5,044 nt of DNA. Origin: Escherichia coli (GTDB taxonomy: Bacteria; Pseudomonadota; Gammaproteobacteria; Enterobacterales; Enterobacteriaceae). The notes beneath the pieces are model-generated. The model was not told where the DNA came from. It worked only from the letters and a program-made list of their open reading frames with translations, and did no database searches. Every line of letters starts with the position of its first letter. Within the stretch, counting starts at the first letter, position 1. The stretch lies in assembly GCF_003334315.1 (NCBI RefSeq), contig NZ_QOWR01000098.1; one strand, 5' to 3'. Below, in pieces: positions 1 through 5,044 of the stretch. The translations under genes were made by a program, and so were the position numbers.

Positions 1-650
<650 letters not shown>

Positions 651-694: not shown

Positions 695-1120
695 TCAATG
701 CACAGCCACAATATTTCCTGCAGGGCCACCACGATTCATCTGGTTGAAACCAGCGATCGCCACTGCGACAAAATCATCAGCGTCTCTCACCAGTCGTTCC
801 CGCGTCTCCACTAGTTCCCGAAAATAGGCTGAGCTATGGCTGCGCATTCGGGCCACCAGCAGAGGTGGCATTGCTTTTTCGATAGCTGGTAACAACGCCT
901 GAATTTTTTCAACTGCATCAGGGGTGTCTTTCTCTACCCAGCGGAAAATTTTCTGGGTATTGCGAGCCAGGGCTTCCGGATGGCTGTCGTCATACAGTTC
1001 TGGGAACGTCATACCCAGTTCAAAATAAGCCCTGGTTATTTCAGCTGCCGGAACTTTTTCACCGTCCGGATGCGCCCAGGCATTCATCGCCATGCGGATG
1101 TGTTCATGCTTGATTTTCAT
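695..1120 (-). CDS. ydaT: YdaT-like protein (CII-type regulator of Rac-like prophages)
   Basis: 141-aa minus-strand ORF beginning MKIKHEHI, with ATG at 1120-1118 preceded by AGGAG at 8-nt spacing. It overlaps the 3' end of the upstream ydaS-like gene by 17 bp, the arrangement expected for the ydaS-ydaT pair. Identity rests on remembered sequence similarity and synteny. Confidence 0.7.
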   Translation of the reverse strand: MKIKHEHIRMAMNAWAHPDGEKVPAAEITRAYFELGMTFPELYDDSHPEALARNTQKIFRWVEKDTPDAVEKIQALLPAIEKAMPPLLVARMRSHSSAYFRELVETRERLVRDADDFVAVAIAGFNQMNRGGPAGNIVAVH

Positions 1121-1385
1121 GAATCAAGCTCCTAGAAAGTGGTTGTGTTAACATTTTGGTATCTTCCAGCTCGGGCCAAATATTCATCCAATCAAAAGGC
1201 CTTAGTTGCTGACGTGTAACTTCACCATTACTGGCTCGCTCAATAAGGACACATAACGATGCCCCTAACACTTGACCTTTACTCAATGCCTTTCTTAGAT
1301 AACCGATGCTGGTACCACACTCGCATGCAAACATACGCTGTTCATCTGACGAAAGAGAATTGAGAAATATTCTTAATTCTTCCAT
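1104..1385 (-). CDS. ydaS: Cro/CI-type HTH DNA-binding protein, YdaS-like
   Basis: 93-aa minus-strand ORF with ATG at 1385-1383 preceded by TAAGGAGTAGCT (AGGAG about 7 nt upstream). It is divergent from the repressor gene across a 100-bp operator region and is followed by overlapping ydaT. The length differs from my recollection of K-12 YdaS (about 98 aa), so this may be an allelic variant. Confidence 0.6.
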   Translation of the reverse strand: MEELRIFLNSLSSDEQRMFACECGTSIGYLRKALSKGQVLGASLCVLIERASNGEVTRQQLRPFDWMNIWPELEDTKMLTQPLSRSLIHENQA

Positions 1386-1415
1386 AGCTACTCCTTAGTA
1401 AACACAGCAAAGAAC

Positions 1416-1490
1416 ACCCATAGGTAAACAAAAGTCAATACCCACAGGTTGTTTACCTTGCAGTAATCGCATCTATTATTTACCTATGGA
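1416..1490. promoter_or_regulatory. Divergent control region between ydaS and racR with three operator-like sites sharing the core AGGTAAA / CCATAGGTAAA
   Basis: Site A is ccataggtaaacaa at 1418-1432. Site B is its reverse complement ttgtttacct at 1449-1458. Site C is tttacctatgg at 1479-1489 (reverse complement ccataggtaaa), overlapping the racR ATG. On the minus strand a -35-like TTGACT (plus 1433-1438) faces ydaS, and a TATTAT -10-like hexamer at 1474-1479 faces racR. Confidence 0.55.
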
Positions 1491-1905
1491 CAAATATGAA
1501 TTTAGACGACAGCAACTCATCAAAATTCGTGATGAGAAATGCGATGGTAAAGCGGTTAACGTGGCCAGAAAGATCGGGCGCGAGCCTTCTTATGTATCAA
1601 GAATGTTGTACCCAGAGGGGAAAAAGGGAAAAAAACGGATCGCTGATGATATGGTGGAGATTATCGAAGAGTCCTTTGGGTTACCCCGGGGATGGATGGA
1701 TGGTATCGTTTCATCATCAACGAACACAGCCTCCAGTTATGAAACAAGGGTTCTAACGCCACGACAACGTATTTTTTTAGATCTCTTAGACGAACTGCCA
1801 GAAAGTGAAGCGGATAACTTATTAAAAACTCTTGAAGAGAAAAAACAGTATTACAATATGATCTACGAAGAAATCCGTAAAAAGAAAGCACAAAACGCAT
1901 CATAG
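1486..1905 (+). CDS. racR: Prophage repressor, RacR-like HTH protein
   Basis: 139-aa ORF divergent from ydaS, in the position of the immunity repressor. There is no in-frame upstream start (in-frame TAA at 1399-1401) and no Shine-Dalgarno before ATG 1486. Operator-like sites flank the gene on both sides. The length differs from my recollection of K-12 RacR (158 aa), so I call it RacR-like. Confidence 0.6.
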   Translation: MDKYEFRRQQLIKIRDEKCDGKAVNVARKIGREPSYVSRMLYPEGKKGKKRIADDMVEIIEESFGLPRGWMDGIVSSSTNTASSYETRVLTPRQRIFLDLLDELPESEADNLLKTLEEKKQYYNMIYEEIRKKKAQNAS

Positions 1906-1950
1906 CTCACCAAACAACTAGTCACCAGTTAAGACACCGCAAAAAGTTAC

Positions 1951-1981
1951 CCATGGGTATTTACTTTTTAAATACCTATGG
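1951..1981. promoter_or_regulatory. Imperfect palindrome ccatgggtattta / taaatacctatgg downstream of racR; operator-like and related to the sites upstream of racR
   Basis: Half-sites at 1951-1963 and 1969-1981 are inverted copies (12 of 13 match) and share CCATrGGTA with sites A and C. The overlapping hexamers TTTACT (1960-1965) and TATCCT (1983-1988) could form a rightward promoter towards ydaG/ydaF. Confidence 0.45.
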
Positions 1982-2159
1982 GTATCCTTCTTTTCATACC
2001 AACCCACCCCGCCCCACAGAATGCAGGGCAATACTTCGAGTTACCAGGCAGTGGTCAGGGGTTAAGTAGCCAGCCCGAGGCGTAAGAACATGACGGCGGG
2101 ATTCAAATTTTGCAGTGCAGCAGTTAGTTCCGCCACCCGGCGTTAAGGGGAGAGATAAG

Positions 2160-2294
2160 ATGGTGCATTACGAAGTAGTTCAGTATTTGATGGATTGTTG
2201 CGGTATCACTTACAACCAGGCTGTGCAGGCTTTACGCAGCAACGACTGGGATCTCTGGCAGGCAGAAGTCGCTATACGTAGCAACAAGATGTGA
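2160..2294 (+). CDS. ydaG: Small Rac-prophage protein, YdaG-like (44 aa), function unknown
   Basis: ATG at 2160 is preceded by AAGGGGAGAG. The translation is MVHYEVVQYLMDCCGITYNQAVQALRSNDWDLWQAEVAIRSNKM with TGA at 2292-2294. It is absent from the ORF track because of its size. Length and position match my recollection of ydaG between racR and ydaF. Confidence 0.55.
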   Translation: MVHYEVVQYLMDCCGITYNQAVQALRSNDWDLWQAEVAIRSNKM

Positions 2295-2304
2295 GATTCG
2301 CAAA

Positions 2305-2460
2305 ATGCAAAAAATCGACCTCGGCAACAACGAATCCCTGGTGTGCGGCGTGTTCCCCAACCAGGATGGAACGTTCACTGCCATGACGTATACCAAAAGC
2401 AAAACATTTAAAACCGAAACTGGTGCGCGCCGATGGTTGGAGAAGCACACAGTAAGCTAA
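2305..2460 (+). CDS. ydaF: Small Rac-prophage protein, YdaF-like (51 aa), function unknown
   Basis: ATG at 2305 with a weak Shine-Dalgarno. The translation is MQKIDLGNNESLVCGVFPNQDGTFTAMTYTKSKTFKTETGARRWLEKHTVS with TAA at 2458-2460. Its 3' end overlaps the convergent sieB stop by 4 bp. Confidence 0.55.
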   Translation: MQKIDLGNNESLVCGVFPNQDGTFTAMTYTKSKTFKTETGARRWLEKHTVS

Positions 2461-3093: not shown

Positions 3094-4188
3094 TTGTCTG
3101 TTAAATTTAAATGGTGGAGTGCGCCTCCGGTTGTAAATAACGACATTGCTGTGTGTAGTCCTGGCGGCATCAGTTTTTTTCTTGAAGTTCGGCTGATGTC
3201 CGCCCTTTTTAAAGTGAATTTTGTGATGCGGTGGGTTGAAGCTAAGGAAAATGATCCGGAGGAAATGGAAGGCGCTGAACATCCGCACAATGAGAATGCT
3301 GGCAGCGATCCGCATCGCGATTGCAGTGATGAAACTGGCGAAGTCGCAGATCCCGTAATCGTAGAAGACATAGAGCCAGGTATTTATTACGGAATTTCGA
3401 ATGAGAATTACCACGCGGGTCCCGGTATCAGTAAGTCTCAGCTCGATGACATTGCTGATACTCCGGCACTATATTTGTGGCGTAAAAATGCCCCCGTGGA
3501 CACCACAAAGACAAAAACGCTCGATTTAGGAACTGCTTTCCACTGCCGGGTACTTGAACCGGAAGAATTCAGTAACCGCTTTATCGTAGCACCTGAATTT
3601 AACCGCCGTACAAACGCCGGAAAAGAAGAAGAGAAAGCGTTTCTGATGGAATGCGCAAGCACAGGAAAAACGGTTATCACTGCGGAAGAAGGCCGGAAAA
3701 TTGAACTCATGTATCAAAGCGTTATGGCTTTGCCGCTGGGGCAATGGCTTGTTGAAAGCGCCGGACACGCTGAATCATCAATTTACTGGGAAGATCCTGA
3801 AACAGGAATTTTGTGTCGGTGCCGTCCGGACAAAATTATCCCTGAATTTCACTGGATCATGGACGTGAAAACTACGGCGGATATTCAACGATTCAAAACC
3901 GCTTATTACGACTACCGCTATCACGTTCAGGATGCATTCTACAGTGACGGTTATGAAGCACAGTTTGGAGTGCAGCCAACTTTCGTTTTTCTGGTTGCCA
4001 GCACAACTATTGAATGCGGACGTTATCCGGTTGAAATTTTCATGATGGGCGAAGAAGCAAAACTGGCAGGTCAACAGGAATATCACCGCAATCTGCGAAC
4101 CCTGTCTGACTGCCTGAATACCGATGAATGGCCAGCTATTAAGACATTATCACTGCCCCGCTGGGCTAAGGAATATGCAAATGACTAA
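3094..4188 (+). CDS. recE: Exodeoxyribonuclease VIII (RecE), N-terminally truncated: only the C-terminal exonuclease-domain portion is present
   Basis: The translation contains [35 protein letters not shown] ... [10 protein letters not shown], which I recognise as the C-terminal region of Rac RecE. The stop at 4186-4188 overlaps the recT start, as in the native recET operon. The reading frame is open from 3010. The track start at 3094 is TTG; the first in-frame ATGs are at 3196 and 3226 and neither has a good Shine-Dalgarno, so the true start, if any, is uncertain. Confidence 0.8.
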
Positions 4189-4867
4189 GCAACCACCAAT
4201 CGCAAAAGCCGATCTGCAAAAAACCCAGGGAAACCGTGCACCAGCAGCAGTTAAAAATAGCGACGTGATTAGTTTTATTAACCAGCCATCAATGAAAGAG
4301 CAACTGGCAGCAGCTCTTCCACGCCATATGACGGCTGAACGTATGATCCGTATCGCCACCACAGAAATTCGTAAAGTTCCGGCGTTAGGAAACTGTGACA
4401 CTATGAGTTTTGTCAGTGCGATCGTACAGTGTTCACAGCTCGGACTTGAGCCAGGTAGCGCCCTCGGTCATGCATATTTACTGCCTTTTGGTAATAAAAA
4501 CGAAAAGAGCGGTAAAAAGAACGTTCAGCTAATCATTGGCTATCGCGGCATGATTGATCTGGCTCGCCGTTCTGGTCAAATCGCCAGCCTGTCAGCCCGT
4601 GTTGTCCGTGAAGGTGACGAGTTTAGCTTCGAATTTGGCCTTGATGAAAAGTTAATACACCGCCCGGGAGAAAACGAAGATGCCCCGGTTACCCACGTCT
4701 ATGCTGTCGCAAGACTGAAAGACGGAGGTACTCAGTTTGAAGTTATGACGCGCAAACAGATTGAGCTGGTGCGCAGCCTGAGTAAAGCTGGTAATAACGG
4801 GCCGTGGGTAACTCACTGGGAAGAAATGGCAAAGAAAACGGGTGATGATGCCAACTTACTGATTTAG
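4181..4867 (+). pseudogene. recT: recT (RecT single-strand annealing recombinase) interrupted by IS1 after codon 220
   Basis: ATG at 4181 is preceded by AAGGAA. The translation [35 protein letters not shown] ... THWEEMAKKT matches RecT as I remember it. From 4841 the frame runs into the IS1 terminal sequence, adding GDDANLLI before a stop at 4865-4867. The track ORF start at 4124 is a spurious upstream extension. Confidence 0.85.
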
Positions 4868-5044
4868 TGTATGATGGTGTTTTTGAGGTGCTCCAGTGGC
4901 TTCTGTTTCTATCAGCTGTCCCTCCTGTTCAGCTACTGACGGGGTGGTGCGTAACGGCAAAAGCACCGCCGGACATCAGCGCTATCTCTGCTCTCACTGC
5001 CGTAAAACATGGCAACTGCAGTTCACTTACACCGCTTCTCAACC
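4841..5044 (+). mobile_element. IS1 insertion sequence, left end (IRL plus the first ~200 bp); continues past the window edge
   Basis: ggtgatgatgccaacttactgatttagtgtatgatggtgtttttgaggtgctccagtggcttctgtttctatcagctgtccc... matches the IS1 left terminal inverted repeat and the insA leader as I remember them, with one mismatch in the IR (GAT where I recall GCT). The exact junction is ambiguous by about 1 bp. Confidence 0.9.
4896..5044 (+). CDS. insA: IS1 InsA (transposition regulator / N-terminal transposase part), 5' partial
   Basis: GTG at 4896 is preceded by GAGGTG. The translation is [49 protein letters not shown], the InsA zinc-finger-like N-terminus. It is truncated by the window end. Confidence 0.85.

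Follow-up and report, generated by a model that had tools for sequence, protein, structure and literature searches.

We analysed a 5,044-nucleotide (nt) stretch of Escherichia coli DNA (contig NZ_QOWR01000098.1 of RefSeq assembly GCF_003334315.1; the whole stretch is called the window below), which holds the immunity and early genes of a cryptic lambdoid prophage of the Rac type. The gene considered here encodes a repressor and sits where E. coli K-12 has racR; on the opposite strand, at a distance of 100 bp, lies a ydaS-like gene. An ATG at 1486-1488 opens its 139-codon open reading frame (ORF), which runs from 1486 to 1905 and is the same ORF as the RefSeq coding sequence; in the genomes that carry the gene, the product is labelled only as a hypothetical protein. 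An earlier note on this DNA had proposed that the mRNA is leaderless or nearly so and starts at or next to this ATG, as the cI mRNA of phage lambda does from the PRM promoter. Here we weigh that proposal against the sequence, its relatives and mapped precedents.

Two premises of the earlier note, that no Shine-Dalgarno (SD) sequence precedes ATG 1486 and that no in-frame start lies upstream, were confirmed. The 25 nt before the ATG gave an anti-SD pairing energy of 0 kcal/mol, compared with -8.6, -6.5 and -8.3 kcal/mol for the ydaS-like gene, ydaT and ydaG, and the 28 codons that follow the in-frame stop TAA at 1399-1401 (1402 to 1485) include no ATG, GTG or TTG. An SD would in any case be absent from a transcript starting at 1486, because such a transcript has no upstream sequence. 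The -10-like hexamer TATTAT lies where the note had placed it, 6 nt before the ATG, and the two -35 candidates it had offered, GTTTAC and TTGTTT, fall in the same region as our TTTACC, read at a spacing of 17 or 19 bp. TTTACC-16-TATTAT was the sole sigma-70-like promoter match in a consensus scan of both strands from 1000 to 2200, and it scored best among plus-strand promoters of the intergenic region with a sigma-70 matrix, which was built from compiled frequencies and is heuristic only. When the first 60 nt of the putative mRNA were folded, the first 26 nt stayed unpaired and the hairpin downstream was not significant (z = -1.6); an unpaired mRNA start is compatible with leaderless initiation, yet uninformative. 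An Rfam scan of the whole window gave no match at gathering thresholds.

The geometry of this promoter is close to that of lambda, whose cI transcript from PRM is the classic leaderless mRNA. Lambda PRM reads TAGATT-taacgt-ATG and the window TATTAT-ttacct-ATG, so that both -10 elements end 6 nt before the ATG, and the centres of the lambda operators OR3, OR2 and OR1, at -19, -42 and -66 from the A of the ATG, have counterparts at -26.5, -41.5 and -65.5. The window also shares with lambda a divergent cro-type gene, a tripartite OR, a gene for a CII-type activator downstream of cro, and a second operator pair with a PL-type promoter beyond the repressor gene. The components themselves differ: the DNA-binding domain and the operator sequence (TACC-N4-GGTA in the window) are unrelated to those of lambda, the window repressor has no S24 domain, and its CII analogue is a YdaT (POU-type) protein. 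Lambda also has an SD-like GGTGA just upstream of the -10, available to PRE transcripts, which the window does not.

A scan of one genome per species found 22 loci encoding the same N-terminal domain, with a match from residue 1 in 20 of them. All 20 of the MDKYE-type loci start with ATG, as do the genes of phages mEp043 and CharmingMan, and the homologues have an upstream layout in common (caATACC-N4-GGTTAT, TTTACC-N4-GGTAA, 6-8 nt, TAnnnT, 6-7 nt, ATG), with the same arrangement of operators and promoter in the two phages. Since an ungapped information-content profile anchored on the ATG was blurred by the alternation between 6 and 7 nt, we counted offsets in a non-redundant set of 17 loci, obtained by dropping those whose 60 upstream nt were over 85% identical; a -10-like hexamer was defined by A at position 2, T at position 6 and at least four of six matches. 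The 17 loci, from Yersinia, Arsenophonus, Edwardsiella, Klebsiella, Brenneria, Pantoea, Atlantibacter, Izhakiella, Aeromonas, Ferrovum and Hydrogenophilaceae, span Enterobacterales, Aeromonas and Betaproteobacteria. In 15 of them such a hexamer ends exactly 6 or 7 nt before the ATG. Shuffled sequences give 1.1 ± 1.0 such loci (maximum 6 in 5000), and the background probability for any other adjacent pair of offsets in the same sequences is 0.035. The two exceptions (L010 and L021) have hexamers at the same offset that fall just under the threshold (TAGACA, TAATCT), and two others (L016 and L020) qualify just through G-initial hexamers (GAAAAT, GATACT). The 6-7 nt between hexamer and ATG are not conserved among the homologues. 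A scan of viral contigs yielded 80 near-identical E. coli copies, informative on within-species variation only. Apart from the window, 79 copies represent 23 intergenic haplotypes: positions 1470-1488 and the -35 hexamer are invariant in all of them, and variation concentrates in the operator centres.

The coding sequence itself points to the same start codon. Residues M1, K3, Y4, E5, R7, R8 and L11 are invariant across the family, codons 2, 4 and 5 vary synonymously among homologues, and six loci have in-frame stops just 3-12 nt upstream of the ATG. Because invariant residues are encoded by synonymous codons and the upstream stops lie so close, Met1 is very likely the real N-terminus.

Other homologues do carry a leader. 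In the Mannheimia phage vB_MhS_587AP2 (L034) and a Pasteurellaceae metagenome-assembled genome (L023), TTTACC-16-TAnnnT is kept about 30 nt from the ATG, and these Pasteurellaceae leaders carry a strong SD (GAGGAGG or AGGGGA); the homologue in Xanthomonas phage Rb1 (L033) likewise has a leader of about 30 nt, with the SD AGAGGA. That the family combines a leader with an SD in some members, and the lack of a leader with the lack of a selected SD in others, matches what a leaderless start predicts. The sequences suggest that members of this one repressor family have switched, in evolution, between leaderless and SD-led translation. It is conceivable, though we advance it with some reserve, that the MDKYE domain marks a CI lineage of wide distribution. 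Its maintenance promoter would be locked to the start codon in Enterobacterales, Aeromonas and some Betaproteobacteria, and in Pasteurellaceae and Xanthomonas a leader of about 30 nt with a strong SD would separate promoter region and ATG, as a natural, repeated toggle.

SD-like elements of another kind were seen in four homologues (L004, L006, L009 and L020), in K-12 racR (L002) and in lambda (L117), at about -18 to -12, where they overlap the -10 or lie just before it. These elements (AAGGA, GAGGG, GGAGG, GGTGA or AGGAG) would be present solely on read-through (PRE-type) transcripts, and the window is without one.

Leaderless starts have been mapped for several repressors in the same position. 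Differential RNA sequencing in E. coli K-12 found only five leaderless mRNAs, and dicA, racR and ymfK, which are prophage regulators, are among them (Romero et al., PMC4681348). For K-12 racR, primer extension and -10 mutagenesis identified the leaderless PracR3 as the strongest racR promoter, essential for promoter strength, alongside two further, leadered promoters (PMC9638921). K-12 racR resembles the window gene in its position between ydaS-ydaT and ydaG-ydaF-sieB of a Rac-type prophage, in repressing ydaS-ydaT, and in a -10 (GAATAT) that ends 6 nt before the ATG of a leaderless mRNA (PMC4681348, PMC9638921). The operators differ, K-12 YdaS and YdaT are just distantly related to the window proteins, and the AGGAG found just upstream of the -10 in K-12 is not in the window. 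PaaR2 of prophage CP-933P in E. coli O157:H7 was shown to be leaderless by rapid amplification of 5' cDNA ends, N-terminal sequencing and mass spectrometry, and the PRM, PR, PL and PRE analogues of this prophage have been characterised (PMC8630535). Its gene faces ydaS-ydaT across 97 bp, compared with 100 bp in the window, and the two prophages encode closely related YdaT proteins and have an identical YdaT site, TTGATT-N6-AATCAA, at the ydaS/ydaT junction; PaaR2 differs in starting with MQKKE and in its operator consensus, GTTTAGTAA, and it is followed by the toxin-antitoxin genes paaA2-parE2, whereas the window repressor is monocistronic and is followed by an OL/PL analogue. Another leaderless mRNA is that of cI in the telomere phage PY54 (PMC4488713). 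A close phage counterpart is mEp043 cI, with ATACC-N4-GGTTAT, TTTACC-N4-GGTAA, TAGAAT and 6 nt before its ATG; its product differs in being 228 residues long, with a C-terminal S24/LexA-type peptidase where the window protein has a short helical domain. DicA of the Qin prophage is, like the window protein, a non-cleavable repressor of similar size, with a leaderless mRNA (PMC4681348), and its N-terminal DNA-binding domain is unrelated in sequence. Given the racR, dicA, ymfK, paaR2 and PY54 cI precedents, a leaderless start is the known norm for a gene in this position.

Taken together, the lambda PRM geometry, the 15 of 17 homologues, the conservation of ATG and MDKYE and the mapped precedents lend good support to a start at or next to the ATG, as the earlier note had proposed. 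We consider it quite probable that the repressor mRNA begins at its own start codon, from a PRM-type promoter, as lambda cI does. In this model, which we infer from promoter geometry and analogy with lambda, the sigma-70 promoter TTTACC-16-TATTAT would transcribe the repressor gene in the maintenance state, RNA polymerase starting at A1486 or within one nucleotide of it, and the mRNA would begin with AUG, with no 5' untranslated region and no SD. Translation would take the leaderless route because such an mRNA has neither, and the ribosome would bind the AUG at the 5' terminus, in the way described for lambda cI; in E. coli, leaderless translation is strongly dependent on a 5'-terminal AUG. 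Repressor dimers would then bind TACC-N4-GGTA operators: OR1 would cover the ydaS-ydaT promoter, the divergent PR analogue, at its -10, OR2, at -41.5, would occupy a class-II activator position, OR3, which overlies the -35 and spacer of PRM, would close this promoter when repressor is abundant, and the two perfect operators beyond the gene would control the PL analogue.

The repressor protein is related to CI proteins, and in sequence it is not a RacR. The earlier note had called the gene racR-like, which holds for its position; by sequence, BLASTP against K-12 RacR (b1356) gave E = 2.3 with aligned fragments of just 7 residues, and we rejected membership of the RacR family. A Pfam scan gave no match even at E <= 10, and a PDB sequence search returned noise only (E >= 0.08), while phrog_5736, a "transcriptional regulator", matches over the full length (E = 4e-70). 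Residues 1-75 are common to many repressors of 220-240 residues with a C-terminal S24/LexA peptidase domain (PF00717), at 50-80% identity, and the annotated cI of the functional coliphage mEp043 is 65% identical over residues 1-86. No S24 peptidase domain was found in the window protein by Pfam, and in alignments about 50 helical residues stand in its place. This C-terminus is 33% identical to DicA residues 84-129 (about 46 residues, E = 1e-7). The DicA family (NF007257) was also rejected as an assignment, with 23.9 bits against a cut-off of 101 and a match limited to residues 86-136. An AlphaFold2 model (predicted local distance difference test score 84.8) shows four helices in the N-terminal domain, then a linker (residues 77-85) that is disordered, and two helices at the C-terminus. 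In Foldseek the best matches were weak (E >= 1e-3), yet consistently phage repressors or Xre-type helix-turn-helix (HTH) proteins, including SPC32H Rep, C-proteins, HigA and the N-terminal domain of TP901-1 CI. The protein thus consists of an Xre/CI-type HTH domain (about residues 1-75), a linker and a DicA-like helical C-terminus, and the gene product is a non-cleavable repressor in the CI position. With an HTH fold, a divergent cro-type gene, repeated palindromic operators, for which binding is predicted, and a PL-type operator set, it has the attributes of a lambdoid CI-type immunity repressor; RecA-mediated induction is not expected, because there is no S24 autocleavage domain. The MDKYE-type DNA-binding domain, for which there is no Pfam model or solved structure, has two kinds of fusion partner: an S24 peptidase, as in mEp043 cI and many enterobacterial prophages, and a short helical domain like that of DicA, as in the window. 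These two fusions represent domain shuffling between inducible and non-inducible repressors.

The predicted operator core, TACC-N4-GGTA, occurs at three sites in the intergenic region and at two perfect sites beyond the repressor gene (Table 1). By analogy with lambda, OR3 is likely to be the site of negative autoregulation, and OR2 stands in the class-II position from which lambda CI acts as an activator, so that we infer that it may activate PRM. The earlier note had instead read autoregulation from an additional operator, "site C", overlapping the start codon, which we rejected as an operator. Matches with at most two mismatches, the class to which site C belongs, number 25 in the window against 14.2 expected, and a single match of this kind is at chance level; relatives do not conserve its left half, and the right half coincides with codons 2-3. 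Site C is thus probably not a real operator. Autoregulation is still likely, more plausibly via OR3 and OR2.

Three positions depart from other E. coli copies: 1415, 1421 and 1462. At 1415 the window has C where 78 of the 79 other copies have T, a change that turns the PR-analogue -10 from TATTCT into TGTTCT and breaks an OR1 half-site; it destroys the critical second base of the -10 and lowers the heuristic PR score from 12.6 to 6.0. Most copies have TATTCT here, and other genera have TAAACT or TAATAT. T1415C may represent domestication that silences a potentially toxic ydaS-ydaT operon. At 1462, A replaces the G present in 63 of the 79 copies, and G1462A breaks the OR3 half-site GGTAA. Read as RNA, the two OL operators form a hairpin of 16 pairs followed by a T-rich run, TCCTTCTTTT, which could possibly serve as a terminator for the repressor transcript.

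A second, leadered transcript is expected from the neighbouring genes. The window YdaT is near-identical to PDB entry 3c4r over its whole length (E = 4e-92) and closely related to CP-933P YdaT (8bt1, E = 5e-80). The CP-933P protein is the activator of PRE933P, a promoter directed at the repressor gene (PMC8630535, PMC9986795), and both the YdaT motif and PRE933P have been described (PMC9986795, PMC8630535). The YdaT recognition repeat of the window straddles the ydaT start codon, as the one at PRE933P does, and by analogy it is probably part of a PRE analogue that reads the plus strand towards the repressor gene; a more speculative candidate for the promoter itself is TTGATT-17-TAGAAA, with a start near 1145 on that strand. 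Because the YdaT site is perfect and the YdaT protein is related to that of CP-933P, a long-leader establishment transcript is expected beside the leaderless one, and the two probably coexist. To judge from the sequence, the repressor AUG on the PRE transcript would be without an SD. A 5' end inside the antisense of ydaS, which the earlier note had set against a leaderless start, is therefore to be expected anyway and would coexist with the leaderless transcript.

The family has been annotated with several starts. In UMNK88 (L030) the gene is annotated 54 nt longer, via an ATG created by a single A1433T change; for phage CharmingMan (L036) the gene caller uses an ATG that overlaps the -10; and some entries (P0015, P0018) start MNLDDSNSS, from a +1-frame ATG at 1496. 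Mis-started proteins include P0015, P0018, P0041 and P0059. Such frequent mis-starts are probably a consequence of the missing SD.

Several considerations weigh against a leaderless start from the PRM analogue. One promoter match is not beyond chance, since shuffled sequences are expected to give 2.2 ± 2.0, and the -35 TTTACC fits the consensus at just four of six positions. Its conservation alone is no proof of a promoter, because the same bases form an operator half-site. The homologous loci are phylogenetically not fully independent. We found no transcription start site, 5'-end or N-terminal data for this allele, or start site data for mEp043 cI, in the literature. The prophage in the window is decayed (IS1 in recT, recE truncated, PR -10 and OR3 mutated), which makes expression levels uncertain, and the leaderless mRNA is perhaps not the sole or dominant species, because K-12 racR has two leadered promoters and a PRE analogue is likely. 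Genes without an SD are not rare. Since neither the missing SD nor the lone promoter match, which is at chance level, says much by itself, the case rests on position and on conservation in relatives.

It is on these grounds that the alternatives separate. The repressor could be made mainly or only from leadered transcripts, from the YdaT-activated PRE analogue or from minor promoters, with S1-dependent initiation at an SD-less internal AUG and with TATTAT as part of an A/U-rich element. The perfect YdaT site, the kinship of its protein with the CP-933P activator, the additional leadered promoters of K-12 racR (PMC9638921) and the A/U-rich, unstructured 20 nt before the ATG all agree with this, and we regard it as unlikely. 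An A/U-rich enhancer leaves unexplained why TAnnnT is locked at 6-7 nt in 15 of 17 loci while neighbouring bases drift, and why relatives with a leader have a strong SD; in K-12 racR, moreover, the leaderless promoter is the strongest and is essential (PMC9638921), and a PRE transcript is unlikely to be the sole source of repressor.

That the hexamer is a functionless coincidence, in a decaying element whose gene is poorly expressed or silent, would accord with the one promoter match in 1.2 kb, fewer than the 2.2 expected by chance, and with the degradation of the prophage (IS1 in recT, a truncated recE, a mutated PR -10). The conservation makes it very improbable: the intergenic region and gene (1386-1905) are found in 822 of 5426 complete E. 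coli genomes (about 15%), all of these carriers except one have it intact and no less than 95% identical, the segment from promoter to start is invariant in the 79 copies, and the arrangement is conserved across bacterial orders and in functional phages. Still more remote is the idea that the start codon is mis-assigned and that a conventional ribosome-binding site serves a downstream Met or the +1-frame ATG at 1496. Entries beginning MNLDDSNSS and the longer UMNK88 annotation might be read in this way, but the UMNK88 extension is due to one base change, the frame opened at 1496 ends after 86 codons, the first in-frame Met further on, at codon 40, falls within the HTH domain and is without an SD, and the invariant positions within residues 1-11 are kept through synonymous codon changes across the family. 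A leaderless start at A1486, probably accompanied by a YdaT-dependent leadered transcript, is the reading that we favour.

The remaining features are collected in Table 1, in which the gene map was drawn from the ORF list and the RefSeq annotation of strain H7 (NZ_CP010171.1), one of the chromosomes identical around the repressor start. Between sieB and recE, the window is missing kilR, ydaE and racC; in strain H7, IS1 interrupts kilR, as against recT in the window. Several complete E. coli chromosomes are 100% identical over a 951-bp stretch around the repressor start, and some copies of the cassette lie in Qin/dicB-type prophages, not in Rac. Carriers of the cassette include the ST131 strain 2822 and the O157:H7 strains Z887 and Z1813.

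Table 1. Promoter elements, predicted operators and genes in the window
Feature	Position	Strand	Remarks
-10 hexamer TATTAT of PRM analogue	1474-1479	+	Ends 6 nt before ATG
-35 hexamer TTTACC of PRM analogue	1452-1457	+	16-bp spacer; embedded in OR3
Predicted +1, A of AUG	1486	+	7 nt after last -10 base; pyrimidine T1485 at -1; predicted from promoter geometry and lambda PRM
OR3 analogue TACCttgcAGTA	1454-1465	+	1 mismatch; centre -26.5 from +1; covers PRM -35 and spacer
OR2 analogue TACCcacaGGTT	1439-1450	+	Centre -41.5 from +1
OR1 analogue CACCcataGGTA	1415-1426	+	Centre -65.5 from A1486; overlaps PR-analogue -10; left half-site damaged by T1415C
PR analogue for ydaS-ydaT	1411-1438	-	-35 TTGACT (1438-1433), 16 bp, -10 TGTTCT (1416-1411)
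"Site C" TACCTATGGACA (rejected as operator)	1481-1492	+	2-mismatch match to TACC-N4-GGTA over start codon
OL analogue, perfect operators TACCCATGGGTA (1948-1959) and TACCTATGGGTA (1973-1984)	1948-1984	+	
PL-like promoter	1960-1965 (TTTACT), 17 bp, 1983-1988 (TATCCT)	+	Flanked/overlapped by both operators; reads into ydaG-ydaF
YdaT recognition repeat TTGATT-N6-AATCAA, TTGATTttcatgAATCAA	1110-1127		0 mismatches; at ydaS/ydaT junction, straddles ydaT start codon
ydaU-type replication-organiser gene fragment	18-629	-	ORF list and H7 annotation
ydaT (CII analogue)	695-1120	-	phrog_163, CII-like activator
ydaS-like regulator (Cro analogue)	1104-1385	-	Strong SD TAAGGAG
Repressor gene in cI/racR position, 139 codons	1486-1905	+	ORF; RefSeq WP_000362155.1
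ydaG	2160-2294		ORF list and H7 annotation
ydaF	2305-2460		ORF list and H7 annotation
sieB	Ends at 2457	-	ORF list and H7 annotation
Truncated recE	Region 3094-4188		C-terminal fragment only
recT with IS1 end	Region ~4850-5044		IS1 end interrupts recT near 4850

E. coli has few leaderless mRNAs, and among those known are several that encode repressors of prophages or other mobile elements. Leaderless prophage repressors are already well documented, and the window offers a further example of a phenomenon that is not itself new: it adds a conserved, phylogenetically broad case to the link between lysogeny repressors and leaderless translation, and leaves the current understanding of either unchanged. 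Recognising a CI-position repressor with a PRM-type start fixes the annotation of a start codon that gene callers sometimes miss by extending or frame-shifting the ORF, and the predicted operator set would control ydaS-ydaT, whose products are potentially toxic. Most useful among the by-products are a correct functional annotation for a common "hypothetical protein", a map of the operators, and the contrast between leaderless and SD-led members of one family. If true, the toggle between the two could be used to ask what leaderless translation contributes to the lysogeny switch.

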